DNA of 60,682 nucleotides, the filler included, from Fonticula-like sp. SCN 57-25 (Eukaryota), in assembly GCA_001724245.1 (NCBI GenBank). It is 4 parts of 4 records of this genome, joined end to end, with 100 filler letters (N's around TTAATTAATTAA, not from the genome) between each part and the next. Parts side by side here need not be neighbours in the genome. Positions count along the whole stretch, not along the records: positions 30,418 to 45,500 come from MEDX01000144.1; 3 more parts are not named here. One strand, written 5' to 3'. The first letter of the stretch is position 1; every line of letters starts with the position of its first letter. Both the position numbers and the translations under genes were made by a program. Below the pieces are notes generated by a model, which searched no databases, was not told the origin of the DNA, and worked only from the letters and a program-made list of their open reading frames with translations. Shown here in pieces: positions 1-60,205 of the stretch.

Positions 1-5
1 CCGAC

Positions 6-24083: not shown

Positions 24084-25325
24084 TCAGTCTCTCTTTGGCG
24101 AGTCTTGGCATCGGATCTCGTCCGTGATCGGATAGTCCGGGTACGGATTGAACGCTGCGATTCCGCCGCGGCCGACGGCGTCCCACCTGTGCGCCCCGCT
24201 CATCCCGGCGATGATGTCGAGATAGTCCGGCTCTGACTCTGCCGTGATGAACCCGCGCTGGATCAAAAAGTGGATCAGGACGAGCGCGCAGTTGGGCTTG
24301 AACTCGCCGGCGGCGATGCGATCCATCGTCTAGCGACAGGAAGAAGGGTAAGGGAAAGGGAAAGCGTAAGCGTATGAAAGTGGCGGCAAAATGGCGTACC
24401 TCTTTCACTGTCCAGAGGTAAAATTCGCCTACTTCGCCATCCGCAGGAACCGGAACAAAGTCCTAGAAAAGGCGTCAAATGAGCGAAAAGGCACATAAAA
24501 AGGGCGAAAAACGTCTGAAAAGCGCAAAAACGCACCGCTGAAAGCTCCAAGTCAAAAACGTATTGCGTTTCCGGCGTGAGTCCCCGCTCGAGCTCAATGT
24601 AGTACGACACCGCCCCCGTGCTCACAGCCTTCCTGGCGATCGCCTCTGGCACGCCCGCCTCCTCGGCGCACTCCTTCACGACGTTATCCATGAGCCCAAT
24701 TCCCAGAGGCTGGCCGCCCGCGACAAAGTTGTCCAGGAATCCCGGCCATGTCTGCTTGGTGGCGCTGCGGCGCGCGATCCACAGCTTGATGTCACCAGAG
24801 GTAGGATCCCGCACGTACCCGTTGATGTGCACGCCCAGGCCGAGCGTGCCAAATATGGGGACCGCGGCGCGCTCGAGCCAGAAAAGAGGGGTCGAGGAGA
24901 AGGCGGATGTCGACGGGACGCAGTACGACTCGTTGCGCCATCCCTTGAGCGTGGACCAGAAGCGCTGATGGGCAACACGTAAGCGAAATGCGAAAAGGAA
25001 AACAAGAACGGACCTGTTCAGAGCGCCAGGTAGATAGGAGAGAGGAGAGAGCGTCGCTGCGGCCGCTCGGCGTGTTGAGCGAGGGGGCAAAGGACACGCG
25101 ATCCGGCGTGCAGGCAAACACGTCGGGATGATGCTCGAGGGCGGCGAGCACATCGGGCCTACCATCAAATGTTACTCTCCCAATATTCAAATCCAAAACC
25201 TACCTTATGCTTCCCACAATGACGCCATCGACAATAAAGGGCAGGCACTCTGCGCGGCTCGATCCCGGCAGGTAGAACGAGTTGCACCGCCGCACCACAT
25301 CCAGGAGCCGCATCGTTCCCGCCAT
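24084..25325 (-). CDS. Nudix hydrolase 20 / YJR142W-like (DUF4743 + NUDIX)
   Basis: Motifs GWRNESY, LERAAVPIFG, GVHINGYV, WIARRSATKQTWPGFLDNFVAGG, KECAEEAG, YVFDLEL and FKPNCAL; several introns. Confidence 0.9.
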
Positions 25326-25327
25326 GT

Positions 25328-25372
25328 CAGTTTGCAGTTTGCGCAGATCTGCAGTTTGCAGTTTGCATATCA
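25328..25372. promoter_or_regulatory. Four CAGTTTG units in the ~82-bp bidirectional promoter
   Basis: cagtttgcagtttgcgcagatctgcagtttgcagtttgcatatcag between the Nudix gene and RCL1. Confidence 0.5.
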
Positions 25373-25407
25373 GCCACGCTGCACCTTGCGTTGGTGGTGC
25401 GGCCGTC

Positions 25408-26610
25408 ATGTCGGTCGTCGAGTGCGAGGGCAGCAACTATTTCCGCCAGCGCGTTGTGTTTTCTCTTTTGAGTGGCAAGCCGCTAAAAATCAGCAATATC
25501 CGTTCTCTTGAAGACAACCCTGGTCTCCGCGGTGCGTCTCCCATTCTCTCGCATTTGTTGTGTGCTGACCATCGTGTTGCCGTCCTGATCCCCGCAGATC
25601 ATGAGCTTTCCTTTCTCAAGCTGATTGAGTCGATCACGAATGGCACGATTGTCAAGATCAGCTACACTGGCACGACCGTCGCCGTAAAGCCCGGCGTGAT
25701 CATTGGCGGCAAGGTAACGCATGATTGCGGCACCGCTCGCGCCATCGGCTACTACCTCGAGCCCCTCCTGATGCTCGCCCCCTTTTCCAAGAACGGCTTC
25801 ATGCTGACCCTTCTCGGCATCACGAATGACCAGCAGGACGTTTCCGTTGACACGCTCCGCACGGTCGCTCTCCCCCAGCTCGCCAAGTTTGGCGTTGATT
25901 CCGATGTCGAGCTCAAGGTCGAGAAGCGCGGCGCCCCCCCGAATGGCGGCGGCCAGGTCTTTTTCCGCTGCGTCCCCGTGCGCTCGCTCAAGCCGATCAA
26001 CTGCACGGACGACGGCCGCATCAAGCGCATCCGCGGCATCGCCTACTCGACGCGCGTGTCGCCGCAGACCGCCAACGTCGTCATCGAGTCGGCGCGCTCG
26101 CTGCTCAACCACTTTATCCCCGACGTCTTCATCTACACGGACCACTACAAGGGCGCAGAGAGCGGCAGGTCGCCGGGCTACGGCCTCGCGCTCGTCGCGG
26201 AGAGCACGACGGGCGCGCTGCTGTCGGCCGAGAGCTGCGGCATGGGCGGCGAGCCGCCGGCAGAGGCGGGCATCAGGGCCGCCAAGCTGCTCTACGCAGA
26301 GATCGCAAAGGGGGGGTACTGCGACGCGACGCAGCAGCCACTCAACTTGCTTATGATGGCGCTCGGGCCAGAGGACGTTAGCAAGATTAGGTTTGGGAAA
26401 CTGACGCCGTTTTCGTACGAAATTTGATGCTCCAAAAGTCGTGAAAAGTGGGCGCTGACATTATTTTTGTAATATAGGATGCAGTTCCTGAGGGATTTGA
26501 AGACGTTTTTCGGCGTCACGTTCAAGATTCAGACGGACGCAGAGACAAAGACGGTCATTATGACGTGCGTCGGGACAAGCTACATCAACGTCAACAAAAA
26601 GATTACGTAG
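25408..26610 (+). CDS. RCL1: RNA 3'-terminal phosphate cyclase-like protein
   Basis: FRQRVVFSLLSGK, NPGLR|DHE, RAIGYYLEP, KRGAPPNGGG, RIRGIAYSTRVSP, QFLRDLK.FFG; introns 25532-25597 and ~26415-26478. Confidence 0.95.
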
Positions 26611-29262: not shown

Positions 29263-30139
29263 ATGGCCGCCATTGTCGACCCGGTGAGCCCGGCGCAGTC
29301 GTCGAGCACGATGTGCAGCTACGCGGACAACTTTTGGGGCCCCTGGAATGAGCAGGATCCCTTTCGCGGCTTTTCCGTTCTCGTCGGCCACATGAAGAAC
29401 AGTGCGTTTCACTTTTCCTCGACTGTTTTCGCCGCCGGCCCCTGACACGTGATGTGCAGTCCGCCGTGAAGTGAAAGAGTTCAACGACTATTTCAAGGAA
29501 CGCGCTCTTATCGAGGAAGAGTACGGTCGCAAGCTGCTCAAGCTCGGCTCGCATCCGCTTGATCCCGAAGGCTTTGGCGTCCCCTCTGATGTTGATGCCA
29601 CCCTAAAGTCTGCGTTCGTATCGCTTCTCGGCGAGACGCGTTCGCTCGGCCAGTCGCACGCGCAGCTTGCCTCCGACATAAAGTCGCTCATTTGCGAGTC
29701 GATGTCGTCGCTCGAGCTTCAGATCAAGGCGATGACGCACGAGCAGGCGCGCGTGGTCGAGGAGAAGCAGCGCCGCTTCCGCGATCTCCGCAGCGCCGCG
29801 CACAAGCAGAAGAGCACGTACACGTCGCTGTGCAAGGAGCTCGACACGCTCAGGGAAGAGCTTACGACGATCTCGGGCGGCTCGTCCACTTCTTCGGCAA
29901 TCGCTGCCGGGGGCACGACGCCGACGACGCCGACGAGCGGCGGCAAGTCGCAGGACAAGATCACCGAGCGGCTCACGCAAAAGTCGGCAAAGCTCCAAAA
30001 GGAGATTGACGTTGCCGACCGTGCGTACCAGCACGCCGTCGAGGCGCTTGAGCCCGCGAGGAGCGAGTGGGAGGACACGACGTCCACGACGTACCACCTC
30101 TTTGAAGGAATCGACATGAACAGGACAATCCACGTCAGG
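29263..30139 (+). CDS. F-BAR/FCH domain protein (PSTPIP/Hof1-like), 3'-truncated
   Basis: SYADNFWG...GFSVLVGHMK, KEFNDYFKERALIEEEYGRKLLKL, TLKSAF, HAQLA; intron ~29402-29459. Confidence 0.85.
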
Positions 30140-30317
30140 GTACGAGATCTGTCGGAAGATTTATGTGTTTTTTATTGGTAATTGATGTTGTTTTGAGCTT
30201 TTTGTGTCTCTTTTCGATTAAAATGTGGTTTAAAATATTGTACTGGATCGTTGGATAGCATGCAAAACTCTTTTTGTTTTGTGCCTTGCGATTGATGCCT
30301 TTCATGTGAATCTGAGC

Positions 30318-31410: not shown

Positions 31411-31743
31411 CGCTGCAAAGGGAAACCCACGTTCGCCGACGAAAGGAAAGGAAAAAGAGGACTTGACTGAGGAAAAAAGCGGCACCCATAAGGATCTTGA
31501 AAATCGTCCCTCGTGCTCGATTGATCCACTACGGAATGCCATATTGGATCATGTTCACTAAAAAGAATCGTCTCTCGTCTCGACCATGCAGGCAGATGAT
31601 GGTGGTCAGGACAAGTGTTGATGGGCATCAAGAAATGTTCCCACGTGGATCTGGGGAAAAGGGAAAACGGCGGACCACGTGCCGATAATCAGCTCACTCA
31701 ATACTTTCTCTCCCTGTAAACCGCAGGAAGCAAGGAATCGAGG

Positions 31744-32027
31744 ATGACGACTGGCGACTTCCGTGTCAAGGTGCGTTGTCTAGTTAAGGCGCGCGGCCCG
31801 CGTGCTGACGTGCATGTTTTTCTTAGGATATCACTCTTGCCGAGTTCGGCCGCAAGGAGATTGACCTTGCTGAGGTCGAGATGCCCGGCCTTATGGCCAC
31901 CCGCGAGGAGTTTGGCGCTGCCCAGCCCTTCGCTGGCGCTCGCATCATGGGCTCGCTCCACATGACCGTCCAGACCGCCGTCCTCATTGAGACGCTCAAG
32001 GCTCTCGGTGCCGATGTCCGCTGGTGC

Positions 32028-32059
<32 letters not shown>

Positions 32060-33236
32060 TGCCGCTGCCGTCGTCGCTGCCAAGACCTCGGCCGTCTTCG
32101 CGTGGAAGGGCGAGACCATCGAGGAGTACTGGTGGTGCACTGAGCGTGCGCTCACCTGGCCCGATGGTGAGGGCCCGGACCTTATTGTTGACGACGGTGG
32201 TGATGCCACCCTCCTCATCCACAAGGGTTTCGAGTTTGAGGTTGCCTTTGCCAAGGACGGCTCGCTCCCCGACCCGGCCACCGTCGCCTCGGACATTGAG
32301 CTCTTCAATGTGTACACTATCATCCGCCGCTCGATCGAGAAGGATGCCAAGCGCTTCCACCGCATGGTCGAGCGCATGATTGGTGTCTCTGAGGAGACCA
32401 CCACCGGTGTCCACCGCCTCAAGGACATGGCCCGCGCTGGCTCGCTCCTCTTCCCCGCCATCAACGTCAACGACTGCGTCACCAAGTCCAAGTTTGACAA
32501 CATCTATGGCTGCCGCCACTCGCTCCCCGACGGCATCATGCGCGCCACCGACGTTATGCTTGCTGGCAAGAAGGTCGTCATCTGCGGCTTTGGTGATGTC
32601 GGCAAGGGCTGCGTCCAGGCCATGAAGGCCGCCGGTGCCTGGGTCATGATCACTGAGATCGACCCGATCTGCGCCCTCCAGGCTTGCATGGACGGCATCC
32701 CCGTCGTCCGCCTCGAGGACGTCATCACCGAGGTTGACATTGTCGTCACGACCACCGGCAACCGCGACATTGTCATGGCCGACCACATGCGCCGCATGAA
32801 GAACAACGCCATCGTCGGCAACATTGGCCACTTTGACAACGAGATTGACATGGCCGGCCTCCTCAACGACAAGACCATTGTCCGCCAGAACATCAAGCCC
32901 CAGGTTGACCGCTTCGTCTTCCCCGACGGCCACGGCGTCATTGTCCTTGCCGAGGGCCGCCTCCTCAACCTCGGCTGCGCCACCGGCCACCCGTCCTTTG
33001 TCATGTCGTGCTCGTTCACCAACCAGGTCCTCGCCCAGATCGAGCTCTGGGCCAACCGCTCGACCGGCAAGTACAAGAAGGATGTCTACCTCCTCCCCAA
33101 GTCCCTCGACGAGAAGGTCGCCCGCCTCCACCTCGGCAAGCTCGGCGCCAAGCTCACTGAGCTCACCCCGACCCAGTCGTCGTACCTCGGCCTCAACCCC
33201 GCCGGCCCCTACAAGCCCGACTCGTACCGCTATTAG
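31744..33236 (+). CDS. AHCY: S-adenosylhomocysteine hydrolase (long-insert type)
   Basis: [57 protein letters not shown]; intron 31771-31826. Confidence 0.98.
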
Positions 33237-33532
33237 AGCGAGCGGGTTGAAAAAATTTGACCCCCAATTTGCACGGTGTTTTCAATACATCCTTTTCCCA
33301 TTGTGATCCTCTTTTTTACTGTCCACTTGAACAATTAACAGGCAAAGTGGTGTACATGAAGCTAAACAGCACACGATAGCATAGTGTCCATAATACAGAA
33401 CAGTTTGATGCATGATGTGGCATATATGACATATCCGTAGTGCATTTTAGAGTCTGAAAAGGTGATTGCCATATGAAAGAAGTCTATTGAAATGATGGAA
33501 TGGTGCAAGTGATATGGATACATGCCCCAGTT

Positions 33533-35598
33533 TTAATGCAATTCCTGGTTATCGTCATCAAACTCGTCGTCAAACTCTTCGTCTCCCCCGAGCGTGTGGG
33601 CGGCGCTTGCCGCGGCGCCATCATCGCTGGTCACGCGCCCGAGCTCAATCACCGCCTCGCGCGTGCTGTTAAACATATGCTCCGGCGGCACGATATCGAG
33701 CATTTTCGCGCGCTCAAACGTCCTCCTTACCTTGTCGGAAACGCGCACAAACCCAACACGGATTCCGCGGCTCTCATAATGCTCTGCAATCTCAATCATT
33801 GACTGCAGTGCCCTATGCGTACATGGTGTGTTAGCCATGGCGGGAAAGCGAAATTTGAAAGCTAAACGTACGAGGCGTCGATTGTCTGCATGCGCTCGAG
33901 GTCAAATACGATGACGCGCAGCTGCCTCGCGACGACGTCGTCTCCCGGGTGATTCGAAAGCGACCCAAACAGCTCGACGCGCCTCAGCCTGTCCTTTAGC
34001 AGCCCCGAGTTTGCAAAGTAGAGCGAGTCAAACATCTGCAGCAGAATCATTCCGTCGACGGCGGTCGCGCCGTGGCGGCCAATCTCGACGTACTTTGTCG
34101 TCCCCGGGACGACGCCGAGCACGGCAAACATTGGCTTTGTCGTCTCCTTCATGACGAGGCCGACCGACACGAGGATGCTGACAAAGATGCCGACCTCGAC
34201 GCTGATGAGGAGCGTGACAAAGAAAATGATGGCAAACATGACAATGTCGCTGTACGCGCGGATGCGCCACAGGAATAAAAGGTCGTGTAGCTCGATGAGG
34301 TTGAACGCCGCGTACAGCACGATGGCCGCCTGCGTCGCGATGGGGAGGTACTTGAACGCCGGCAGCATAAACAGGATCGCAAACAGCACAATGATGCCAG
34401 TCACAAAGCCGTACACTTGCGTGCGCGCGCCCGACGCGTCCGCCACCGACGTGCGCGACATGGACGCAAAGGCAGGGTACCCGCCAAAGAAGCAGCTCAA
34501 AATGTTCATCATGCCAAAGGCGACGAGCTCGCGGTTGTCCGAAATGGCATAGCCGTGCTTGTTGGCCTGCTCCTTGGCGACAATGATGGACTCGACGAAC
34601 CCGACAATGGAGATGACGACGGCCGACAGCAAGAGGTTTGAGACGCGCGCAGAGGTGAGAAGCGGCACGCGAGGGGTCACAAAGCCGCCCTGGATGTCGC
34701 CCAGGATCGCGAGGCCATGCTGGTCGAGCTGGAATCCCCACGCGAGCAGCTCGGATACAATCACGAGAAGCATGATGGACGGGAAAAGGCGCATGACGGT
34801 GCTGTGAGAGTAGTAGCGCTCGCGGACAAACTTGAACGCCATCAAAAGTGCGACGCCGATAAAGCTAAAGAGGCAGGGGTACAGCTGCGTCTCGCTAATG
34901 TGCTCAAAAATAAAGATGAGCTTCATTAGCGTTGACGAGCCTTCTTCCCAGTGCGACTGAAGGCCGAGCGCGCGGTGAAGCTGCTCGACAATGACGACAA
35001 AGGCGACGCCAGTGATGAAGCCGCGGTTTGTGGCACGCGAAAGGATGCAGTCAAGGTAGCCAAGGCGGAAAAGGCCGAGGGCAAACGTGAAAAGGCCAAC
35101 AAGGCACGTCAAAACTGCGACGAGGGCGAGGCGCTCCTCGGGATCTTCCTCGTACACGATCGCCGCGCCAGTCATGATGCTTACAACGGCCTCAGGGCCG
35201 ACGGCAACGTGCCGCGACGTGCCGAGGAAAATGTACACCATGATGGGGACAAAGCTCGTGTACAGACCGTACATCGGGTCGAGATCGGCGAGGCTCGCGT
35301 ATGACAGCGACTGCGGGATCAAAAGGCACGCCACGGCGATGCCGGCGAGAATGTCGTACAAGATGTCGGTCTTGCGGTAAGCGGGGAGCCAGCTCAGGAT
35401 GGGGATATAGTAACGCAGACGCTTCTTTATGTTGTGCTTGTCGAGGCGGCGGCCGTACTTGTCCGTCTTGAGACGGCGCGAAAAGCCCGTCACGCTGCCG
35501 TCAGAGCCATCGGCGGCCGAATCAAGAAGTGCCTCCAAGTCATCATCTTCACTATTTAGAGAGTTGTACGCGGCATCCATTTCGGGCGACACGTCCAT
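33533..35598 (-). CDS. SLC26/SulP anion (sulfate) transporter with STAS domain
   Basis: IPQSLSYASLA, GLYTSFVP, GTSRHVAVGP, NRELVAFG, SMSRT, LYFANSG; intron ~33815-33870. Confidence 0.93.
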
Positions 35599-36551
35599 AC
35601 GGGCGCAGCGGTTTGTCGACGCTGCGCACTACGTGGGCTAGCGACAGGGTGCGGGGCGCGGCGAGGTACAATACTATTAAGTGGGGCGCACGACGGCCGC
35701 GAGCGACGACAGGGGATCGGTCAGGCGAAACGCAGATAGAGACAGACGCACAAAGGAGAAGAGAATGGAATAGAAGGAGCGTCAAAGGGCTAGGCAAGAG
35801 ACGCGCGACAGAGGCAGAGTCTCAATCCTTCGTGACACGTCGACAATCGACAGGCACGTCCGATGGCGTGTGCACACTAGGCAAACAAGCGGTTCAAACG
35901 ACCGGGGTGACACGAATTGCATCCCCCAATTCTGACTTTTGATTGGATGAAAAATCAAATGAAACGCCCCTATTGGTGGATATACACGTGATGGGCTGTT
36001 TTTCCCTCTTATTTACTAAAAGAACCTTTCCTCGCTGAATACTTGGAGAAAGAGGACGAAAGATGTATTACAGTATAATACATGTAGAGACCGCATTGAA
36101 AACGTTTTTAGACTATTAAAAATGTCAAAATTGAGAATTTTGAAAGGAATCGTTCTTTGAAACAGCTCGTACGCTTCATTGAGATGTGTCCTGGTACATT
36201 TACGTGATTTACACATTTTCAATCGAGACTCGAATTTCCCTCGACATTTGCTCGCGATTGAGTCGATCAAGTATGTACGATATATATACGGTAAGATGCG
36301 TCTATTCGAGGTCTATTATGTGGCACACTTTCATTTTCCCATCAAGCCAACTCGGCCGCACATGAACCAAAACGTCTTTGCCCTTTTGGACTCGTCTTTG
36401 CGACCTCTACTGGACACTATTCCGACACAACACAGTATGGAAACTGAACTATTAACTCTATGAGTATATTGTGTAGCGTGCAACTAACCATGTAAAATAA
36501 AGTATTACTAAAAATGCAACAAAAAAATTCCGAAATGCGCTCCAAAACCTC

Positions 36552-38910
36552 TCACGTCAGCGACAAGAGCCACGCTACAACACACATTAGCATCACATTT
36601 CCTCACGCGGCATTTCGCGGCGCACCTTCATAGTCGAGTCGCCCCGTCGGGTCGAGCAGCAAGTCAATCTTGAGCGTATCAAACTCGTCCTTTGAAAGGC
36701 CGTTTCCGTCGCCGAACCACGCCGACACGCGCTTGAGGTCGCTGAGGCGGATGGTGCCGGTGCCAGAGGGGTCCAGCTAGCGGAAGGCGGCGCGGAGAGG
36801 TTTTTCGCCGCTTTGGGGGCTCGAGCGAAGCATCGCTTCAAAGTCGCTGAACGACACTTCGCCTGCAAGAACGCGTAAGTAAGGGAATCAAAGGCAAAAC
36901 AAAACGTATGTATCTTCATGTGTAAATCCAATATTTCATGCTGAATATGCATCCAAATATCAACAAAACCATACATGTATCAACAATGAATGTACACTTT
37001 ATCATACCAAATATCATGTATACACTTGGCTTTCCACAAAAATATACATGTATCTACATCTGAATACCCATGTTTCATACCAATTACCATCTACACCCTC
37101 ATATTACACCATCTATTCCCCATCCCAATATCATTATTAGTAACGCACCCATGATGTTGCGCGCCTTGAGCTCCACCACCAAATCGCGATCCGTCCACGT
37201 GGACCCAAGCCCCCTCAGCAGCGCCTTGAGCGCCTCGCACGTGATCGTCCCAAGGCCCTTTGGGTCCAGCAGCGAAAACGCCTTCTTCAAATCCACTATT
37301 GTCCACGTGGTCAGAAAACAATCATCCACGTGGCGCTCGTACCGGTTGTCTTTTGCGTGGTGGTCGGCACGACGGGGCGCAGCGTGGCGGACGGCGGCCG
37401 CGACGTCCCCGACGGCTTGAGCTTGGGCCGCTCCTCTTCTTCCTCTTCCTTTGCCTCTTTTGTTTCAATGTCAGTGCGCGGCGTGGCGGGCGCCGAAGCG
37501 GCCGACGTCGGCTCTGTCGGCGCGTCATCGTTGCTCTCGTCGTCCGCCTTGCTCACGACAACGACAACTTCGGCTTCCTTGGCGGCGGCGTCGGCGGCTT
37601 CGGCGGCGGCGGCGAGCGCCATCGCGGCGGCCACGGCGGCGGCCTTGGCGGCGCGGTCGTCGTCGGCGGACTTTTCCTCAGCGGCGGCGGCGGCGGCGGC
37701 GGACTCGAGCGCGGCCTTTGTCGCGGCTTCGGCGTCGGCGTCGGCCTTTTCGGGTTCGGCGGGCTTGTCGGCGGGGGGGGCGTGGTTCTGGATGAAGGGG
37801 TGCTCGAGGAGCTGCGCGGCGGTCCAGCGGTCGGCGGGGTTCTTGATAAAGGTCTTGTTCAAAAAGTCGACAAGGTCCTGTGGACGCGATGAGTCAATGT
37901 GGGAAATGCGGGGATAAATATACAACAAAGACATGAATATACACGTATTTTTGATGCAAAACATAAATAAAAAACAAAATAAGACCACAAAAACAAAATA
38001 TGACGTACCTCGGAAGCGCCTTCTGGGTACGGCGGGTGATCGTCCTCGACGATCTTGAAGAGTGCAGTCATCGACCGCTGATCGTGGTACGGCGGCTTGC
38101 CTACAAGACACACACGTTAGCGCGCTTCAACACAAAATAAGCGCGGCGTACCGGTGAGAAGCTCAATGACGGTGCACCCGAGCGACCAAATGTCGGACGC
38201 GATCGTCGCGCCCTCCAGCTGGATGACCTCTGGCGACATCCAAAAGGGCGTCCCGACCACGTCCTGGTTAAACTGCTCCTCGCCGCGGACCGACCGCGAA
38301 ACGCCAAAGTCAGCAAGCTTGATTGTGCCGCTCCTGCGTCGGCGGCGTCGCCAGTGAGAACGCAGAGATCACACACAAGGAGTTGCGCACCTCGTCTTTA
38401 GAATATTGGCGCACTTGATGTCGCAGTGGATCACGTTGCGGGCGTGCAAGTACGCGAGACCCTCGAGCAGCTGGCGCGTGTACTTGCTCGTCGTGGGTTC
38501 GGAGACGGTCGCGTTGTTTTTGAAGAGGCGGGTAAGAGCGCCGTCGTCAACAAACCTGCGACGACCGCCGGTTAGCACGCGGGATAACCATGTATAGTGC
38601 GTACTCGAGAACAATGTTCAGGTGATCGCGCGTCTTGATATATTCGATGTATTTAACAATGTTCTTGTGGGAAAAGTCCTTGAGCAGGTCAATTTCCTTC
38701 TATTCTCACAGAATCACATGGTTAACAACGGGATCGGAGGCATGCGCAACCACGCACCATCACGTTGTCGATCTCGTGGGCCTCCTCGAGCGCAATCTGC
38801 TTGATAGCCACGACCTCGCCATCGGCAAGATTGAGTCCCTTGTAGACAATGCCAAAGGCTCCCTTGCCAAGGCACGCGCCCAGCTGATAACCGCCGATAA
38901 TCACTGGCAT
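36552..38910 (-). CDS. STE-group Cdc15/SepA/MAP3K-epsilon-like kinase fused to a calmodulin-like EF-hand domain; in-frame TAG at 36777-36779
   Basis: Kinase: [59 protein letters not shown]. After an Ala/Glu linker, introns 37296-37342, 36863-37148 and 36575-36625 splice in frame to [16 protein letters not shown]...GEVSFSDF...[15 protein letters not shown]...GRLDYEAWL. Confidence 0.85.
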
Positions 38911-39215
38911 TCGCGCGTGGGGACGAGCGGGCTGCGCTTGCTGCTTCGCTTCAACAAAACAGACCGATGCAGCGATTTGATTGGCTGGCGGTGACCTGTC
39001 ACAGGACTGTGGTCAATTGGAGCATTGTGATTGGATGATGGGGATACAGTGCATGGTTCGGGGAACAAAGCAGCACATCTGTAGCATTTTGATACAGATT
39101 TTGAGCTCGATGTGTCGATAGCGGCCGACAGACGCACATGAAAAAAAGGCAAAAGTAGTGTTTGCATATTAAAAATCACATTTATTATTATTGTACAGAT
39201 GCATCGCAAAGTGGT

Positions 39216-44434: not shown

Positions 44435-45500
44435 CTACTCGGCGAGGGCATTGATGCGCGCATTGACCAATGAAGCCGACGGGCGATCGGAAGTCTCGGC
44501 CACAAACACCTGGCGCATGATACTCGCGAGCTCAAAGCGGACGCTGTCCTTGGAATCGCCATTCACCTCAAGGAAATGGCCATGAGTCACGTGACTTCCA
44601 ATGTCTTCGTCGGTCATATTCTCCCACGGCATGCGGCGCTCGCACATCTCCCACAACAGCACGCCAAACGAGTACATGTCGCTTTCCATATCTTCTTCAA
44701 CAGGCCAGAACGTGTAACGATGGGCCACGTGGTCAAACACGAGAGGCGACGCGTAGCGCATGTCACGTGTCATCCTGAGCGTCGAGATGTCGTCCTCGGC
44801 GGAGCGCGATGCGTTAAAGCCGCTGATAATGGGGGTCAGGAACTTGGAGTCGCCCGACGGGGCCTGAAGCAGAATGTTGGACGACCGCAGGTCGCGATGG
44901 GCCACGTGGAGAGAGTGGAAAGCAACGAGGCCAGACGAAATGCCGGCGGCGAGGTGATGCAGCTGGGCAGACGACAGCGGCGATTGGTCGCCCTCGTTGT
45001 GCAGGAACGACGCCAGGTCAGTCTCGTAGCGGCGCGTAATGATGGCGCGCGGCTCGTCAGTGTACGCGACGAGGCTGATCACGTTCGGGTGGAACGACAG
45101 CGACCACATGAGCGCCACTTCCGTGTGGAAGCGCTCAGTGTTCACTTCTTCAGAGACGGCGGGGTTCGGGACATACTTTTTCACCACAACACTGCTCGTG
45201 CCAGTACGCTGCGAAAGCGTCACGTCGAGCAGCGTGGCGGCGAACGCGCGGCTGCCGGGGAGACGAGCGCCGGGGCGCACCGACGAGTTGTAGTCGGCGC
45301 GCAGGAAACCGGGAAGGGCAATCTCGAGCGCAGTGTTCACGACGGTTCGGTGAGCATCTTGCAGATGGATCGTCGTGCTGCTCGCGTGGCTCATGCTCGA
45401 GCGAGACTGCACGAGGGCCTTGTTGTACATCTGGAGCGACTCTAGCGATTCAACGCCGCCGTACTTTTCAAAGATCTTTTCCGAGCGCGTCTGGCGGCGT
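44435..45500 (-). CDS. Tyrosine-kinase-like (TKL) domain, probable pseudokinase; 5'-truncated
   Basis: FHTEVALMWSLSFHPNVISLV, HRDLRSSNILL, SDMYSFGVLLWE, RPSA; DFG replaced by GFN; frame open to the contig edge. Confidence 0.8.
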
Positions 45501-45600
45501 NNNNNNNNNNNNNNNNNNNNNNNNNNNNNNNNNNNNNNNNNNNNTTAATTAATTAANNNNNNNNNNNNNNNNNNNNNNNNNNNNNNNNNNNNNNNNNNNN
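45501..45600. other. Artificial contig linker
   Basis: N44-TTAATTAATTAA-N44. Confidence 0.97.
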
Positions 45601-45633
45601 CCTATTCAAAATCGCATGCGTAATCGCATGCAT

Positions 45634-45647
45634 TTTTGGCGCCAAAA
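45634..45647. promoter_or_regulatory. Palindromic E2F-like site at GINS1
   Basis: TTTTGGCGCCAAAA, ~36 bp upstream of ATG 45683. Confidence 0.6.
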
Positions 45648-45682
45648 GACCAGTGCTTGAATCGCACGGCGTCGCAGCGGCC

Positions 45683-46249
45683 ATGTATGTTGACGATGCG
45701 GTTCAGCTTCTTCGCGAGCTTCGCCGCGCGGCCGACGGCACGCTCCCTCCCTACAACGAGGAGCGCGTCCGCGCCGTCATTCGCGAGTGCATTTCTCTCT
45801 ATTCGCGCGGGCATTCGCTCCATGCCTCCGGGCAAGGGGATCGCGCCCTCCTCGTGACGCTCACGCTCTGCCTCAAGCGCAACAAGCGCTGCCTCGTGAC
45901 GTACCTCAAGCATCGCGCGGACCGCGTGCGCGCGCTCTGCTGGGCGGCGGGCGGCGCCTTTCCAAGCGCACCAGAGGTAAAGTCCAACATGAGCCGGGCC
46001 GAGATCGAGCTGGCAAGGAACTATGTGCGCGTCCTGGGCGAGTACCGTGCTGCGTACTTTGAGATCGATCTTACCGCCAACCCCATGCCGCCAAAGGAGC
46101 TCTTTATTCAGGTGCGCGCGCTGCAGGACTGCGGCGTGATCCAGACAGAGGGCGGCAGCATCAACATGGCCAAGAACAGCCAGCACTACGTGAGGAGGAG
46201 CGACGTCGAGCACCTCATAGGGCAAGGGTTCCTCCTCCATATCAAGTAA
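45683..46249 (+). CDS. GINS1: GINS complex subunit 1 (Psf1)
   Basis: LPPYNEE.VR.VI.E, LKRNKRCLVTYL..R, DLT...PPKELFIQVRALQDCG.IQTE.G, HYVRRSDVEHLI.QG. Confidence 0.95.
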   Translation: MYVDDAVQLLRELRRAADGTLPPYNEERVRAVIRECISLYSRGHSLHASGQGDRALLVTLTLCLKRNKRCLVTYLKHRADRVRALCWAAGGAFPSAPEVKSNMSRAEIELARNYVRVLGEYRAAYFEIDLTANPMPPKELFIQVRALQDCGVIQTEGGSINMAKNSQHYVRRSDVEHLIGQGFLLHIK

Positions 46250-48011: not shown

Positions 48012-48316
48012 GGCAAATAAACCTTCCAGACGGGAAAGATCACCTGCTGGACGACGGGGAAACAGTTCAACCTGTTTTTTCTTTCAAGCCCACGTGACGA
48101 TCAGGATCGAGGATCGCGATCGTTCATTTTTCAACGATGACAGCGCATTTGCCGATGACGTAGATGGTGACGTCACATAGGCATAGGTCCATCACTCGCG
48201 CAGGACGCGGCGGCTGCCTGCCCCTCCCCACCTATTCCTCCGGAATCCCGCTCGAGGTTGGCAGCGCTGCGGACGGCACTTGTTGACGACGTCCGGGAGA
48301 GGCGCACGCGTGAGTC

Positions 48317-51300
48317 ATGGAGTTTTCTCCGCGGCATCAGAGCGTTTCGCTGAATATTGACCTTCAGGAGTGCTCGCTTGCCGGATCGACGACGATCCTG
48401 CTTGCCGCGCCCTGGGTCCCTCCACCCCCCGCGGAGCCCGCCGCCCCATCACTCGTTCTCTTTGTTGGCGACGCCACGCAGAGCGCTCCGCCCGCCGAGC
48501 CTGCTGCGCCCGCCGTTCCCGCGAATGTCCCGCTGTCGATCGCGCTCCACTGCTCGTGGCGCATCAGCATCGACAAGGTATCGATCGATGGCGTCGAGAC
48601 GAGGTTCCGCTTCCGCACGCAGCCCAAGCCGGAGCCGATTGTAGGGACGGTGACGCCAAACACCCCGCGCTCCGATTTTAACCTCTTTCTGCCGGCCGAT
48701 GACAATGAAGAGGAGCTCGAGGTCGACATCCCTCCCTCCGTTCAGCAGCGCATCGCTACCGAGCCGGTCTCGACGCCCGCCGAGCACACCTTTTCCCTCT
48801 TGATACAGTACCGCTGCCGCGACCCGCAGGGTGGCGTCTACTTTTACAGCAGCACGCCCGGCACAGTGTCGCACGCGTACACTGAGAATCAGCACAGCTC
48901 GGCACGCATCTGGCTGCCCTGCTTTGATAACCCGACCGATCGCTGCACGTGGGACTTTGAGATCATCGCCTCCAAGCAGCATACAATTATCATGTCGGGC
49001 GACCATTTTGTTGAGCGCGCGATCGAGGGCGGCTTAAAAGCACGCACTGCGCGGATCAACTCACCGATCGACGCGCCCAGTCTCGCCTTTGCCGTCGGCG
49101 AGTTTGCCGAGTACCCTGACCTGTTCATCGACCGCGTGTTTCACTACGCGCCGCGTTCAGAACTCGCAAAGGTCGCTCATACGGTGCAGTTTCTCAGCCG
49201 CGCCTATGACTTTTACCTTGTGCGTGGCGTTAATTCCTTTTTTCTTTGCGCGCTAACAGCATGGATAGGAGTACCTTGACATTGGCTTCCCGTCAGACAC
49301 GTACCAGCAAGTATTCCTTCCCGGCGCGCACCGCAGCATCATGTCGAGCGGCCTTGCCTTTTCTGGCCTCTCATGTGACCTTTTGCACCCGCCGTCCATC
49401 ATCGAAGAAGAGCTCGAGGCGAGGCGGTACGCGGCATATTTTTCAGTTTTTCCCTGCTCACCTTTCCTTTTTTAAGGCATTTGTCGCATGCGCTTGCGAT
49501 GCAGTACTTTGGCCGACTTGTCCATGCGCGTCACCGTCCTGACAGCTGGCTTGTCGACGCCCTTGCACTTCACCTGACACATCTTTTCCTCCGCTCGCTG
49601 ATGGGCGTGACCAACTGGCGCTTCCAGCTCCGCGAGGACATGGACTTTGTGTGCGCCACTGACACTGACCAGCCGCCAATCAGCGACGCCGAATTCCCTT
49701 CGCACCTCGACCGCGAGCTTCGGCGCGTCTTTGTAAAGCGCAAGGGCCGCCTCGTGCTTCACATGCTCGAGAAAAGCCTCGGGGCCGATGCCCTTGACGG
49801 CGCGATTCGGCGCATCTTTCAGACAGAAAACGACACTGGCATTGTTGACGTCACCTTTAGCCAGCTTCTCAAGCTGCTCAAGCGCAACACGGTCAAGGAC
49901 AAGGAAGTCAAAAACCTGACGGACCATTATGTCTACCAGAGCGGCTGCCCGATCATTACCTGCGAGTACGCCTACAGCCGCAAGCGCAATGTCGTCGAGC
50001 TGCGTCTCGGCCAGACGTCCACGTGCGCGGCCACGTCGAGCGACTCCCCCCGCTTCGCCACCCCCGTGACACTTCGCGTTCACGAAACGGAAAACTCTTA
50101 CGAGCACATTTACACCATTGAAGATGTGTCGCACAGTTTCGAGTTTGCGTACCATTCCAAGGCCAAAAAAGTGCGCAAGCCGAAACCGCGTCTCGGCGAA
50201 GAGGCCATGTCGGGCAAGCTCAAGGACATGTGCGACTGGCAGCTGCTCGACAATGACATGGTGGAAGACTCACCTGTCCTGTGGATGCGCGTGGACCCCG
50301 ACATGCAGCTCATCTGCTCCGTGTCGATACGGCAGACAGACTACCAGTGGCGCAACCAGCTGCTCATGGACCGCGACGTTGTTGGCCAGTACAATGCACT
50401 GGTCGCGCTGCGCGCCTTTGCAAACCGCGCCACGTCATGCGCGCTGATTCGCGCCATCGCCGACCGCCGCGTGTTTTACCGCGTGCGCGCCGAGATTGTG
50501 GGCACAGTCGCGGCGGTGGCGGCGCGCCAGTCCGACTATGACGCATTGAAGGTGTTTATCCGCTTTTTCACGGCGTACTACTCGCTCGGAACGGTGCCGC
50601 TCGTGCTCGATCAGGAAGTAGAGGCGCCCGTGATGCGCCCGAACCGCTTCACTGAACTGTCAGACTATTTCGTGCTCAAGGCGATCCCGTCGGCCGTCGC
50701 GACCATCCGCGACGAGCGCGGGCTTCCGGTCGCCGACGCCGTGCGACTTATTCTTTGCATGCTGCGCTTCAACGACAATACAAACTGCGAGTACAGCGAC
50801 TCGTACTATATTGCGCAGCTTGTCGAGTCGCTCGGGACGGCGCTGTACAGCCCCAAAGCGGATATTGCCGTATCAGGTGACCGCAATCATATTAGCCGCG
50901 AGAGCCTTCACGCGCTTTCCCTACTTTCCATCGACGAGATTGAGCGGTGCCGCGCGACCGAGCAGCTGTCGCCGTCATACCGCCACGTGGTTGAAGCCGC
51001 TGCGCTTCGTGCGCTTTGTCAGCTTCAGCTCGCCGATCGCATTCCGCTTCAGGTGACGCCGTTTATCCTTGCTTCCAAGCGGCCGCAGGCCGTCGCCGTC
51101 CGCATCAGCGCCCTGGCGTCGCTCATTCGCACAGCAGGCGGCGACCTTTACATGTTTAGGTATATCATCCACGTGGCGGTGCATGACCCCGAGCCGTACA
51201 TTCGCTTTGAAACGACGCGTCTTTTGGTCGAGTGGGTGCGTCGCGCGGGAAATGACCTGCAGCTGCGCGCACAGCTCGATGTCCTCAAGCACAATATTTC

Positions 51301-52915
51301 ACAATGCCCCGAATTCAAGACAATCATTATTGACTATGTAAGTGATTGTGCTGACGCTGCGCAAGCCGACTTGCTCGCCGAAGTGCTGCAGAGCATCTAC
51401 AAGCATTGCGCAGGTCTCTTCTTGGAAGATCTTGCAAAGACAGTGACGGTCGATGGTCAGCGACTCAAGCTCACACTGAGTGTCGCACTTCCCACGCCTC
51501 AGCAAGCCGCTTTTTCATCGCCCGCCGCGTCGCCCGCCGTCTCGCCGTCAAAGAAACGTCCCTCTTCAGAGTCGAAACGCGCGTCCAAAAAACACGCTTC
51601 GTCGAGCGGCGCAAATTCGCCGCGGCCAGTGAGCCTCATGGCGCTGCTGCAGGCTGACCCGACCGCGGTGGCGCGCACAGCCGACGGCGACGAAGATGAT
51701 GACGTGGACGTTGATGTTGATGACGCAGAGGAGCGCGCGGCGGCGGACGCGGCGGCGGCGGCCGAGCGCGCGAGAAGAAAGCAAGAGGAAGAAGAAGCCG
51801 ATGCGGCGGCGGCAGAGGCGGCGGCCGTGCTGGGCGTGTTTTACAGGGAGGATATGCAAATGTCACGTGATGATTATATGCGTGCGTCGTCGGTGCTGAC
51901 GCCGCTTTTGGACGAGCCGCTGTTTGCAGAGTTTGTTGAGCCTGTTGATACGGATGTGCTGCTGGATTACAAGACGATTGTCGCGACGCCAATGTCGCTG
52001 TCGACGATACGCGACAAGCTCGTGTCGGGGAAATACGCATCTCAGCATGAATTTTCGGTGCGTAACGAGTGTGAAAATGATACTTTTGTGTCAATTGTGT
52101 TACTTTTGTTGTTTTTTTGTGTCACTTTTCGTAGCTTCTTTTTCGTTTTCCACTTTACTAAAAGCCATCTTGCGCCGATTTTAGAAGGACATGGCGCTTG
52201 TTTGGAAAAACTGCCGCTTGTACAACTCTGCTTGGCTTTCCCTTACACAAGCTTCCTATGCTCTCGAAGAGCGTTTCCAGCGACTTTGGCACCGCGCGCC
52301 GACAATTCGTTGCCCGCCGCCGACGCCGCCAACTTCGTCATCAGTCAAACTGCGCTTCCCCGACCAGCCAATGTCGCCCGTCCTGCACGCTGCACTTGCC
52401 GCGCTGTTCAAACGTATGGCCGAACGCAAGGACGCGCAGTTTTACCGCGACCCGTACCGCGAGCCGCTGTACCTGCAAGTCATTCCGGAGCCGCGTTGCA
52501 TCACGGGAATCCAATCTAAACTGCGCCAAAAAGGTAAGTTGGACATATATTTTGACATTTTACCCCCTTTTTTCGCCCTTTTTACGCTTATACTGACACA
52601 ATTTTAGCGTACAAGTCGTTGAGTGCAGTTGAGACTGATGTTCGCATCATGATTGAAAACAGCCGCTACTATAACCTTTCGTACAGCGCTGCTGTCAGGG
52701 ACGCCAACAGTCTCGAAGTCTTTTTCGATGATGAAGTGGCAAAGTTGCTGCGGCCGGGACACTTGCAGGCCATTGAGGACAAGGTGGAAAAGGCGAGAAA
52801 GGCAAAGGCGGCGGCAGAAGGTGGGACGACGACGCCCGCAAAGCAGCAGAGCCCGGGGCCGAGCGAGTCGCCGGCGGTGCAGCAGCCAATCAAGCTAAAG
52901 TTCAAGTTTGGGTAA
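48317..52915 (+). CDS. TAF2: TFIID subunit 2 with two C-terminal bromodomains
   Basis: M1-aminopeptidase-like ARIWLPCFD...RCTWDFE, LAFAVG, WMRVDPDM, QLLMDRDVVGQ, FNDNT.C.YSDSYY; bromodomains FVEPVD...DYKTIVATPMSL...NCRLYN and FYRDP...ENSRYYN; four introns. Confidence 0.92.
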
Positions 52916-56411: not shown

Positions 56412-58216
56412 TCATCGTACGTCGTCAGGCTCGACCATCTCGCCCTGCCCGTCCTGCTTCTTTTGCAACCCCGAGACGATGTCGTCGACACGGAGGAGGA
56501 GGCACGCAGCCTCGACGGCGGTCTTGAAAGTCTGGACCTTGACCGAGTAAGGCTCCCAGACGCCGTACGTGGTCATGTCGACGATCTTGCCGCTCTCGCC
56601 GTCGACGCCCCACGTGGTGTTCCCCTGCGCCTGCTTGGCGCGGAGGTCGGTGAGGACGCGGATGGCCGAGCCGCCGCAGTTCTGGATGAGCGTGCGCGGG
56701 ATGATCTCCATGGCGTCGCCGACGGCCTTGTATGGCCGCTGCTCGACGCCCTCAATGGCCTTGGCCTTTTCGGCGAGCGCGACAGCGACGGCCATCTCGG
56801 TGGCGCCGCCGCCCGGCAGGAGCTTGGGCTCAAAGATGACGTTGCGGGCAACGTTCATGGCGTCCTGCAGGTTGCGCTCGATTTCATTCATAATGTCCTT
56901 GGAGGCGCCGCGCAGGAGAAGCGTGCACGCCTTGGGCTCCTTGCACTCGACGAGGAAGCTGTAGTACTCGTCGCCGAGCTTGTCCACGTAAAAGAGGCCG
57001 CACTGCGTGCCGACGTCAGACTCCTTGAGCTCGTCCGTGCGGTTCACGATCGTCGCGCCGGTAGCGCGGGCAATGCGGTTGTTGTCCGTCTTGCGCACAC
57101 GCCGGAGCGCAGTGATGCCGGCCTTCAAAAAGTAGTGCTGAGCAAGATCAGCGAGGCCCTTCTCGGTGATCACAAGATCGGGCTTGAGCGCAATGATGTC
57201 GTCGCAGATGCTCTTGATGTACTCCTCCTCAATCTGCAGCATGCGGTTCCAGTCATCCTCCTTCGAGACCTCGACATTGATCTGAGACTCGCCCTTCTTG
57301 TACTCGAGGGGGCAGTCGAGGAGGATAACACGGGGGTTCTCGATGCGGCGACGCATGCCGGCATGCGTAACATCCTTGTTCAGCATCACACCATCAAGCA
57401 CGCGGCACTCTTCAATCTCACCACCGGGGATCTTCTCCACCTTGGCGTAACGCTTAATGTCAACCTCGCGGCGGCCGTCAACGTTGAGCGACACGGTGCG
57501 AACGGCATCATAAGCGAGATTGCACATGAGGTCGCTCCAGCGGCTCACAAACTTGGTGCCGAGCGACGAGCGAATGATCTTGATCATCTGCTCGCGGCTG
57601 TTCACATCAACGGGGAGGGCAATCTTGTCCATCACCTCAATACCATCCTGCAGCGCCTGGCTGAAAGCGCGGATCACAACAGTCGGGTGAATCTCGCGCT
57701 CAATGTGGGGAAGAGCAACATTGAGCATCTCACCGGCAAGGATGATCACAGACGTGGTGCCGTCGCCGACCTCCTCGTCCTGCGTGCGCGCAAGCTCAAT
57801 CATGGACTTGGCGGCGGGGTGCACGACCTCGCACTCGCGCAGAATCGCATTGCCGTCGTTCGTGAGAACGATGCCGCCCATGGGGTCAAGAAGCATCTTG
57901 AGCATGGCGCGGGGGCCAAGGCAAGTGCGGATCACATCGGCAACGGTCTGGGAAAGAAGGGCGGCATGAGCAAAGAAAGAAAAGGCAAGAAAAGGAGTCA
58001 AAGAGGCCAGAAATAAGGCGAGGAAGGGGGGGAAAGGAAAGGAAAAGGCGACGCACCTTGGCGGCATTGATGTTGTCAAGCTGCGCCTTACGGCCGTGCG
58101 AGCGCTCCGTGTTTTGCTCTAAGGGCAACATATAAGTAAACCAACATACTCGCTCAACAAAAAGCCTCCTGCTAAAGGAAAAGGGACGTACGGAGCACAA
58201 GGACAGGTGCCTGCAT
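56412..58216 (-). CDS. CCT3: T-complex protein 1 subunit gamma
   Basis: MQAPVLVL|..GRKAQ..NINAAK|TVADVIRTCLGPRAMLKML, GDGTTS, EIERNLQDAM, LLRVDDIVSG. Confidence 0.97.
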
Positions 58217-60174: not shown

Positions 60175-60205
60175 CGTTCGAAACCGTTCGAGGAAGGTTC
60201 GTGTA

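Follow-up and report, generated by a model that had tools for sequence, protein, structure and literature searches.

CDPKs are the textbook signalling enzymes with a second-messenger sensor of their own, and they have a conserved autoinhibitory junction of ~30 residues between the kinase and the calmodulin-like domain. Their layout, an N-terminal Ser/Thr kinase and a C-terminal four-EF-hand calmodulin-like domain in one polypeptide, is shared by the protein described here, which is encoded within the window (the whole 60,682-nt stretch of DNA that was analysed). The CDPK kinase belongs to the CAMK group, however, and the four EF-hands of CDPKs have canonical Ca2+-binding loops, whereas the window kinase falls in the STE group and, as read from the sequence, most of its Ca2+ ligands have been lost; the conserved autoinhibitory junction is also missing from the window family. 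Given an STE kinase, no conserved junction, and lost ligands, the likeness to CDPKs would be one of architecture and not of descent. Calmodulin, centrin, and myosin light chains are free small proteins, whereas the window EF domain is the tail of a kinase. Myosin essential light chains have degenerate EF loops.

In the portions of the sources consulted, two precedents of independent kinase-EF-hand fusions are both of CAMK type. The Phytophthora infestans kinase PITG_08008 has weak EF motifs and was negative for 45Ca binding (PMC3019232); its EF-hands are N-terminal, whereas those of the window protein are C-terminal. The EF-hand CAMKs of trypanosomatids do not cluster with CDPK1 (PMC1266030). 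The corresponding portions of three kinome surveys (PMC1266030, PMC3019232, and PMC526369) file EF-hand accessory domains under CAMK, plus one under “OTHER” in the P. infestans table, and describe no STE-group kinase with EF-hands. This agrees with the preliminary description of this DNA, which had treated a kinase joined to a calmodulin-like domain as the CDPK architecture of the CAMK group. In the full texts searched, no STE or Cdc15-type kinase with EF-hands is described.

The predicted window gene has nine exons on the minus strand (38910..36552), separated by eight GT..AG introns. All eight introns start with GTRCG and end with AG, and the reading frame is maintained throughout. The features are as follows:

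38758..38910, minus strand: exon 1, with the ATG at 38910, the Gly-loop GKGAFG at 38868..38851, and the VAIK Lys at 38811..38800; matches positions 1-40 of the Pfam Pkinase profile
38605..38699, minus strand: exon 2, kinase N-lobe, preceded by a 58-nt intron (38757..38700)
38391..38555, minus strand: exon 3, with the catalytic loop at 38428..38399; Pkinase 49.4 bits against a cut-off of 31.7
38152..38333, minus strand: exon 4, with DFG at 38311..38303 and the activation segment GTPFWMSPE at 38254..38228; Pkinase 63.9 bits
38009..38100, minus strand: exon 5, kinase C-lobe, aligned to the relatives P0005, P0007, and P0154; no Pfam match for this exon alone
37343..37877, minus strand: exon 6, with the kinase end HPFIQ at 37802..37788, followed by a linker of 146 residues rich in Ala, Glu, and Pro (45 Ala, 19 Glu)
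37342..37296, minus strand: 47-nt intron, phase 1 (GTACGA...TTCTGAC...AATAG), with a CTGAC branch-like site
37149..37295, minus strand: exon 7, with the EF1 loop at 37266..37231 and the EF2 entering helix; matches calmodulin residues 12-49 (E 2e-9) and EF-hand_6 at 21.8 bits, below the Pfam cut-off of 25
36626..36862, minus strand: exon 8, with the remainder of EF2, the EF3 loop at 36773..36738, and EF4 (DPTGRLDYE) at 36653..36627; matches calmodulin residues 64-139
36779..36777, minus strand: in-frame TAG, codon 485 of 543, immediately ahead of the EF3 loop
36552..36574, minus strand: exon 9, AWLLSLT and TGA, following a 51-nt intron (36625..36575)

The predicted product consists of 541 residues plus the one in-frame TAG, and its domains follow in the order kinase, Ala/Glu-rich linker, and four-EF-hand domain. 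The 47-nt intron links the end of the kinase and linker (...QKTT) to the EF-hand domain, and the 51-nt intron, which the preliminary description did not mention, shifts the true stop of the gene to the TGA at 36554..36552, matching the start coordinate given there. All of the protein strings quoted in the preliminary description were located in the minus-strand translation at the positions it gave, although the “x” that it wrote in AF.xLDPSG is the in-frame TAG, which it did not spell out. The fusion escapes prokaryote-style ORF calling.

At least six related environmental sequences have the same fusion; we recognise a family of seven distinct sequences: the window gene, P0005, L001/P0007, L002/L012, L004, L016, and P0154. 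Kinase and EF domain occur together in 5 of the 80 metagenome loci. The spliced window protein is colinear with full-length P0154, and it aligns to P0005, in which kinase and EF domain lie in a single ORF, at 65% over 155 residues of the kinase and 31% over 157 residues of the EF domain (E 2e-20). A single uninterrupted ORF also runs from the kinase into EF3 in L002 and L012; these two and P0005 have no intron at the position of the 47-nt intron and keep one frame throughout. L004 has three intron positions in common with the window gene, including an intron that matches the 47-nt intron in position and phase and another at the site and phase of the last intron, after which it reads AWMKDV. 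L001 has no intron at this last site and ends in DYGALISALCQ and a stop codon. The linkers have no common sequence, and their lengths range from ~17 residues (L004) through ~25 (P0005 and L001) and ~55 (L012) to ~150 (window and P0154). No conserved pseudosubstrate-like or CDPK-like junction segment was identified among the family linkers compared.

When P0005 was compared with representative proteins, the best 150 matches were all kinases, and P0154 was the only one among them seen with the same tail; 16 of these 150, P0154 included, were run through Pfam, and none had an EF-hand at E ≤ 0.001. Word-index searches with the EF3-4 piece of the window against longer proteins scored 0 of 131 candidates, and those with the EF region of P0005 returned only P0005 itself among 2000 candidates. 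P0252 was considered as a further member and rejected, its second matched stretch being spurious.

Variation between samples bears on the splicing of the window gene as well. Run X2, a diverged strain from another study, differs from the window by 40 substitutions. The introns (730 nt) carry 29 of these and the exons (1629 nt) carry 11; nine of the exon substitutions are synonymous, one replaces A by E in the linker, and one turns TAG into AAG. Within the 47-nt intron, X2 has three substitutions and a 2-nt insertion, with GT/AG retained. Without splicing of 37342..37296, the kinase frame meets a TGA (37313..37311) 12 codons past the proposed donor, and this in-frame stop is what would favour a kinase that ends there, with EF-hand exons that are non-coding or part of a different gene. 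However, the EF-hand frame (ORF 37099..37464) has no Met upstream of EF1 and is thus no standalone gene, the single ORFs of P0005, L002, and L012 already contradict such a separation, L004 has an intron at the same position, and the 47 nt tolerate a 2-nt insertion while the flanking exons are preserved. We therefore regard two separate units as highly improbable. Splice motifs by themselves would be insufficient, but homology and the pattern of variation place the gene model beyond chance. The 23 listed sequencing runs with this stretch include no RNA run. This is a genuine fusion, and it characterises a small conserved family, with the splicing in the window read from its sequence; the 47-nt intron proposed in the preliminary description, joining kinase and linker to the EF frame, is borne out by the single ORFs of relatives, the L004 intron, and the variation in X2.

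In the window kinase, the Gly-loop, VAIK Lys, HxD...N, DFG, and SPE are present in order (PF00069). Pkinase matches were obtained for five of the six kinase exons in colinear profile order, and two of these matches exceed the cut-off. Comparison with solved structures assigns the kinase to the STE group and not to CAMK. With exon 4 as query, 317 solved chains were matched, and the best 60 comprised STE kinases plus three NEK chains and no CAMK, the top matches being MST1/2/3/4, STK25, and MAP3K2. With P0154, 1706 chains were matched; among the best 60, 59 were STE kinases (MST, STK24/25, MAP3K2, TAO, PAK, SLK, MAP4K, and TNIK), one was labelled EGFR, and none was CAMK, consistent with the earlier proposal of an STE and not a CAMK/CDPK kinase. 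By language-model similarity, P0154 resembles ciliate clusters of CDPK type (score 0.98), which agrees with the architecture but disagrees with the STE placement of the kinase.

The nearest named kin are the Cdc15/SepH/Cdc7(Sp)/MAP3K-epsilon kinases: exon 4 is 69-71% identical to Cdc15, cdc15-like, and sepH proteins, and the window kinase shares with Cdc15/SepH-type kinases a C-lobe signature typical of that family. Whereas the named Cdc15-type members have HRDIKGANIL as their catalytic loop, the window kinase has HCD, with Cys for the Arg of HRD (“non-RD” is our own label), and the HCD-type loop recurs in each of the five kinase domains compared (window, P0005, P0007/L001, and P0154). An ARM/ARMC5-type tail (PF24768) was identified on six Cdc15-type matches, named or unnamed, whereas the tail of the window family is the EF domain; no ARM family was detected on the window exons (E ≤ 1), P0005 (E ≤ 0.01), or P0154 (E ≤ 0.001). 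The window protein has 542 residues, compared with about 1000-1500 for Cdc15-type kinases.

A kinase tree was built from 158 C-lobe columns of 70 rows, after twelve long-branch rows had been dropped and classes subsampled. With 31 of its 67 inner branches open, it places the EF-bearing kinases in a polytomy (support 92) with a clade (support 93) that includes the named Cdc15 and Cdc15-like kinases; because rows were drawn by likeness to the family, the tree lacks reference STE20, STE7, STE11, and CAMK kinases. A topology in which the five EF-bearing rows form one clade was not rejected (p-AU 0.70), with a log-likelihood 6.5 above that of the free tree. A FastTree run with 165 rows was set aside, its resolution being too poor. 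Based on the 70-row tree, the family appears to adjoin the clade with the named Cdc15/SepH kinases and to lie outside it. The label “Cdc15/SepA-type” given in the preliminary description is correct as to the nearest named kin, but the family probably stands beside the clade with the named Cdc15-type kinases, has HCD instead of HRD, and carries no ARM-type tail.

The C-terminal tail is a calmodulin-like domain with four EF-hand motifs, as had been proposed. Positions 7-132 of the family EF profile align to calmodulin residues 11-139 (~100 bits, E about 1e-28), and, apart from one calmodulin-calcineurin chimera, the best 60 matches in this search were all EFCAB6 or calmodulin. The predicted structure of the EF domain has eight helices, with pLDDT about 90 in the N-lobe and 50-65 in the C-lobe (low confidence). 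Foldseek placed calmodulin first for this model (32-36% identity) and also listed a myosin II regulatory-domain chain from Physarum (2bl0_B, TM 0.63). Single window exons score below the Pfam EF-hand cut-offs; EF-hand_7 matched the window C-lobe, with the TAG read through as X, at 34.6 bits (cut-off 30) and also matched the P0005 N-lobe. The EF domain of P0154 was not detected by Pfam at E ≤ 0.001. With single exons, the scores for centrin versus calmodulin were 37.6 versus 40 bits and 31.8 versus 32.2 bits.

The EF1 loop registers residue by residue against calmodulin, with K at loop position 3, L at 5, and A at 12, and the EF2 and EF4 loops are degenerate. EF3 alone is near-canonical in the window (D-x-S-x-T-G-x-I-x-x-x-D), keeping D/S/T/D at positions 1, 3, 5, and 12. 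The preliminary description had likewise called the loops degenerate. Over the seven family members, the Ca2+-ligand positions are not conserved and the hydrophobic core is. Five members share an LLRGLG-x-W-T/S-type motif in the EF1 exiting helix, which has diverged in P0154.

The premature TAG differs between samples. Runs X2, X3, and X4, which come from three further studies, have T on the plus strand at 36779, which gives AAG (Lys), and the relatives have Ala at this column. Within the EF exons, the TAG is the sole difference between X2 and the window, and the 151-nt contigs of X3 and X4 are identical to the window apart from this site. Run X1 has A at 36779 in an 8254-nt contig with a depth of 14.5 and no second letter reported. 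Reading TAG as a sense codon was rejected, given AAG elsewhere in the same species; with the standard code, moreover, no stop interrupts the other long frames of the window (up to 1637 codons), which speaks against a common use of TAG as sense. The window copy may instead be a broken or truncated allele, in which the TAG removes 57 residues and the protein ends before the EF3 loop; the last exon junction follows 151 nt downstream of the TAG, and the mRNA may thus face nonsense-mediated decay. Its presence in both the window and the X1 contig favours such an allele, as do the AAG of the other three runs and the Ala of the relatives, but X1 is possibly the sample of the window assembly and then not independent, and Logan contigs lose minor variants, such that the source may have held a heterozygous or minority AAG allele. 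Moreover, the copy bears no further damage, and the remaining exon differences from X2 stand at nine synonymous to one non-synonymous. Since the stop is the sole damage, it would, if real, be recent. We consider a truncated allele somewhat less probable than its alternatives, although it is compatible with our main explanation, which is about the intact gene. A nonsense allele in the window copy would mislead annotation.

Overall, we explain the locus as a member of an STE kinase-calmodulin-like fusion family, to which we assign a probability of about 0.75. With the Ca2+ ligands not conserved and the hydrophobic core conserved, a largely Ca2+-independent module would be likelier than a CDPK-type switch. 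The tail would represent a natural experiment, in that it is largely stripped of its Ca2+ ligands yet maintained by purifying selection, a combination suggestive of a docking or regulatory role independent of Ca2+. Based on the reading of the loops and on analogy, the EF domain could act as a built-in, largely Ca2+-independent module of calmodulin or light-chain type that clamps an amphipathic helix, either on a partner protein, for targeting, or in cis, for regulation; we give this mechanism close to an even chance. Complex prediction with the kinase (1-290) and EF domain (415-563) of P0154 gave a score of 0.00, which speaks neither way on binding.

It is also conceivable, though we think it unlikely, that the EF domain is a true Ca2+ switch, binding Ca2+ and thereby freeing the kinase from autoinhibition in the manner of CDPKs, an arrangement then invented independently on an STE kinase. 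The order of kinase and calmodulin-like domain is that of CDPKs, the linkers of L004 and P0005/L001 are short (about 17-25 residues), and the language-model neighbours of P0154 are of CDPK type. Near-canonical loops that keep most ligand positions persist in single members, namely EF3 of the window and of L012 (DDSKNGLMKLSD) and EF1 of L016 (DTNKTGSLSIKD), and these could possibly confer some Ca2+ response. However, no EF loop retains its ligands across all seven members, the loop of EF4 lacks two residues in the window, L004, and L012, and the linkers vary in length between about 17 and about 150 residues with no conserved pseudosubstrate-like segment, making a CDPK-type pseudosubstrate junction unlikely. 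For the same reasons, and given the nonsense codon at EF3 in the window, the earlier suggestion of a Ca2+- or centrin-like regulated kinase is not upheld, and we retain the Ca2+-independent tail as the preferred reading.

A conserved family with a CDPK-like layout on a Cdc15-related STE kinase would indicate that the kinase-calmodulin architecture arose more than once. A bolder proposal, which we hold to be improbable, is that this is a second independent “kinase with its own calmodulin”, on a kinase of Cdc15/mitotic-exit type in a probably non-opisthokont protist lineage, with the tail tying a cytokinesis or mitotic-exit kinase to Ca2+ or to docking sites in place of an ARM-type targeting tail. 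If so, the docking sites would be those of calmodulin, centrin, or light chains, IQ-type helices at the division apparatus or microtubule-organising centre.

Elsewhere in the window, an ORF encodes an adenosylhomocysteinase, an enzyme whose long form is not known from fungi and animals. With chains of 430 residues, only two stretches or the C-terminal part of this ORF align, whereas it aligns end to end with chains of 480-490 residues.

Translation of the minus strand of 36480..39000, followed by splicing by coordinates, gave a nine-exon model for the kinase-EF-hand gene.

Exons of the kinase-EF-hand gene, spliced by coordinates
38910-38758, minus strand, exon 1
38699-38605, minus strand, exon 2
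38555-38391, minus strand, exon 3
38333-38152, minus strand, exon 4
38100-38009, minus strand, exon 5
37877-37343, minus strand, exon 6
37295-37149, minus strand, exon 7
36862-36626, minus strand, exon 8
36574-36552, minus strand, exon 9

All eight introns (in order 58, 49, 57, 51, 131, 47, 286 and 51 nt) start with GTRCG and end with AG, and most have a CTRAY-like branch site. The 1629-nt coding sequence has 543 codons: 541 residues, an in-frame TAG and a terminal TGA (36554..36552, minus strand). The 47-nt intron that the preliminary description placed between kinase and EF-hands was recovered exactly, at 37342..37296; it lies in phase 1 and joins ...TTQKTT to the EF-hand part. If it is left unspliced, the kinase frame ends 12 codons on at a TGA (37313..37311), and the EF-hand frame (ORF 37099..37464) has no Met before EF1. 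Intron 7 (36863-37148; 286 nt) is AT-rich in an otherwise GC-rich gene, contains repeated CATGTAT/ATACATGTA-like words, and is the part most variable between strains, with 12 substitutions and two indels in sequencing run X2, which represents a diverged strain; this intron could be a decayed small insertion.

We searched exon 4 against longer proteins; among the 120 matches listed, one, database protein P0005 (339 aa), has both kinase and EF-hand Pfam families, and it runs in one open frame from the kinase C-lobe into the EF domain. The spliced window protein aligned to P0005 at 65% over 155 residues of the kinase part and at 31% over 157 residues of the tail (E 2e-20), including all four EF motifs. 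Searching protein representatives with P0005 identified P0154 (563 aa), which is full length and colinear: its kinase spans 19-271 and is followed by ~150 residues of linker and, at 423-563, by an EF-like tail matching P0005 at 26% (E 5e-9). From a scan of metagenome contigs, 80 loci were kept and searched with a profile of the EF domain, which placed an EF tail after the kinase in five (L001, L002, L004, L012 and L016); in L002 and L012, a single ORF spans kinase to EF3. An intron of L004 is identical in codon and phase to the window's 47-nt intron, and the two genes also have in common an intron within EF2 and a last intron after ...YE, then AW.... In L001, a 57-nt phase-0 intron (L001:647-703, ending in TAG) lies between kinase and EF domain, twelve residues upstream of the window's intron position; P0005, 76-89% identical to the L001 protein, lacks this intron and reads through. 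Database protein P0007 is an L001-type gene miscalled into the same intron.

At 40 listed positions, X2 contigs carry another base than the window: 29 of these fall within the predicted introns (730 nt in total) and 11 within the exons (1629 nt). Nine of the exon differences are synonymous; the other two are an A>E change in the linker and TAG>AAG, the latter being the sole difference in the EF exons. The 47-nt intron retains its GT and AG in X2 despite three substitutions and an insertion of 2 nt. The relatives (P0005, P0154 and the metagenome loci) and this pattern of strain variation bear out the fusion first proposed from the window: as a predicted architecture it is established in the family, and it is very likely present in the organism of the window. 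Hundreds of unrelated contigs from the sequencing runs pile up on the linker's GCC/GCG-rich Ala codons (37585-37669), where summed depth in X1 reaches 4728 and loose ends and false joints are numerous; the apparent changes at 37615 and 37626 are noise from this pile-up.

The in-frame TAG is codon 485 (36779..36777, minus strand). The string AF.xLDPSG reported in the preliminary description is present, except that its x is this TAG; relatives have Ala in the column. Plus-strand position 36779 is T in X2, X3 and X4, which come from three other studies, giving AAG (Lys), and the 151-nt contigs of X3 and X4 are identical to the window except at the TAG. X1, flagged as a possible source of the window, has the TAG at a depth of 14.5. 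Since the standard code leaves the window's other long frames open, TAG is unlikely to be read as sense. The codon is therefore a nonsense allele of recent origin or else a variant beyond what the contigs resolve. A real stop here would cost the protein 57 residues, comprising the EF3 loop and EF4. It sits 151 nt ahead of the last exon junction, a spacing at which, in many eukaryotes, the transcript may be subject to nonsense-mediated decay.

The kinase has complete catalytic motifs, including GTPFWMSPE, and Cys replaces the Arg of the HRD motif, which makes it non-RD (our own term) by the usual definition. The best 60 solved chains for P0154 comprised 59 STE-group kinases, one chain labelled EGFR and no CAMK, and window exon 4 gave the same STE picture plus three NEK chains, in agreement with the STE assignment made earlier. 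Named top matches to exon 4 were ascomycete Cdc15, cdc15-like and sepH (69-71% over 60 residues), together with a basidiomycete group in which one member is labelled STE/STE11. Our kinase tree (70 rows, 158 C-lobe columns) used rows picked by likeness to the EF-bearing family, contained no reference STE20, STE7 or CAMK sequences, and left 31 of 67 inner branches unresolved. It grouped the window with P0005, P0007 and L001 (support 90) and P0154 with database protein P0185 (80); both groups join, in a polytomy (92), a clade (93) made up mostly of HRDIKGANI kinases (17 of 27 rows) and including the named Cdc15-type rows. Outside this polytomy falls the basidiomycete group with HCDLKAANI. Constraining the five EF-bearing rows as one clade was not rejected and scored better (p-AU 0.70). 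Together, the solved-chain matches and the tree support a predicted STE kinase adjoining the Cdc15 type, as part of the earlier Cdc15/SepA-type label had it; a reading as a Cdc15 orthologue is unsupported. Whereas Cdc15-type matches have an ARM-type tail (PF24768), Pfam analysis found none in the window gene, P0005 or P0154.

The family EF-domain profile (A3) aligned to calmodulin residues 11 to 139 (~100 bits, E ~1e-28) and was outscored only by EFCAB6, a many-repeat protein whose weak repeats are summed. The window's EF1 exon aligned to calmodulin 12-49 (E 2e-9) and its EF3-4 exon, with TAG read as X, to 64-139; the latter scored 34.6 bits with EF-hand_7 against a Pfam cut-off of 30. AlphaFold2 predicted eight helices in the P0005 tail (pLDDT ~90 in the N-lobe, 50-65 in the C-lobe, mean 74). 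Foldseek ranked calmodulin first for this model (32-36% identity), and the best TM-scores among the listed matches (0.62-0.63) belonged to chain 2bl0_B, from the myosin II regulatory domain of Physarum, and to a Chlamydomonas flagellar doublet chain. The tail is calmodulin-like, with the four EF-hands originally described. The loops are degenerate, as also described, with Ca2+ ligands mostly gone in the window and EF3 near-canonical.

EF loops of the window gene
EF1 loop: K, L and A in place of calmodulin's D, D and E
EF2 loop: ARNIMGEVSFSD, degenerate
EF3 loop: ligand positions near-canonical
EF4 loop: DPTGRLDYE, short by two residues, final A

Across the seven distinct members of the family, no EF loop retains its Ca2+ ligands; hydrophobic positions and a GDKL-x-x-x-EF segment are kept, and an LLRGLG-x-W-T/S-type motif is common, albeit diverged in P0154. 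The predicted product is apparently an active STE kinase with a calmodulin-like domain under purifying selection. We put the probability at roughly 45-50% that the tail works, largely without Ca2+, as a helix clamp in the manner of a light chain or apo-calmodulin, and that it would tether the kinase to a partner or fold back onto the kinase itself. A real Ca2+ switch on an STE kinase is less likely, and keeps some probability because single near-canonical loops survive. CDPKs are alike in architecture (kinase plus calmodulin-like tail), but the window's kinase is not CDPK-like; because the linker, ~17 residues in L004 and ~150 in the window and P0154, is unconserved in length and has no sequence in common, the predicted proteins speak against a CDPK-type junction.

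Within the portions of the published surveys considered here, EF-hand domains occur in CAMK kinases in the TriTryp accessory-domain table (PMC1266030) and in Plasmodium CDPKs (PMC526369), and P. infestans EF-hand kinases are classed "CAMK, OTHER", with PITG_08008 having weak EF-hands and no binding (PMC3019232). Searches of article full text turned up no account of EF-hands on an STE or Cdc15-type kinase. Predicted proteins of this small, conserved family are already in public collections without annotation, and the family was seen here solely in environmental or assembly sequences. The window is eukaryotic DNA that probably derives from a metagenome, since the run covering it best, flagged as a possible source, is from a bioreactor metagenome. 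Near-identical DNA to the window occurs in runs labelled aquatic metagenome and fungus metagenome, and wastewater and soil runs contain smaller shares of the window.

An intronless S-adenosylhomocysteine hydrolase (adenosylhomocysteinase) ORF (31827-33233, plus strand) aligned end to end with solved chains of 480-490 residues, best with 3ond (738 bits), a plant enzyme, and with 430-residue chains in two stretches or in the C-terminal part only. The long form is not known from fungi or animals, which hints, as a lead only, at a non-opisthokont host. The antisense 527-codon frame (31698-33281) looks spurious and has no Pfam match. Several neighbours are ordinary eukaryotic housekeeping genes without functional tie to the kinase.

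Neighbouring housekeeping genes
6950-8750, minus strand, RFC1
25276-26424, plus strand, RNA 3'-phosphate cyclase
33862-35628, minus strand, SulP sulfate permease
45557-46246, plus strand, GINS PSF1
56415-58118, minus strand, CCT chaperonin subunit
58348-60249, minus strand, TFIIIC subunit

At a distance of 6 kb from the kinase-EF-hand gene there is a second protein kinase ORF (44438-45544, minus strand; PK_Tyr_Ser-Thr, 86.9 bits), and no likeness in architecture was seen between the two. An FCH/F-BAR domain ORF (29453-30178, plus strand) lies 7 kb away; fission yeast has an F-BAR protein also named Cdc15, which is unconnected with the kinase of that name, so the shared keyword is a trap. A 1637-codon open frame (3-4916, plus strand) runs off the window start, its sole family match being a weak one to NOV_C (NO VEIN C-terminal; 21.1 bits, below cut-off). 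A TAF2-like gene (49379-52519, plus strand, with 48314-49276) has Peptidase_M1_N, a TAF2 Ig-like domain and TAF2 TPR repeats, with a C-terminal bromodomain inside the same 1046-codon frame, a combination that seems unusual.
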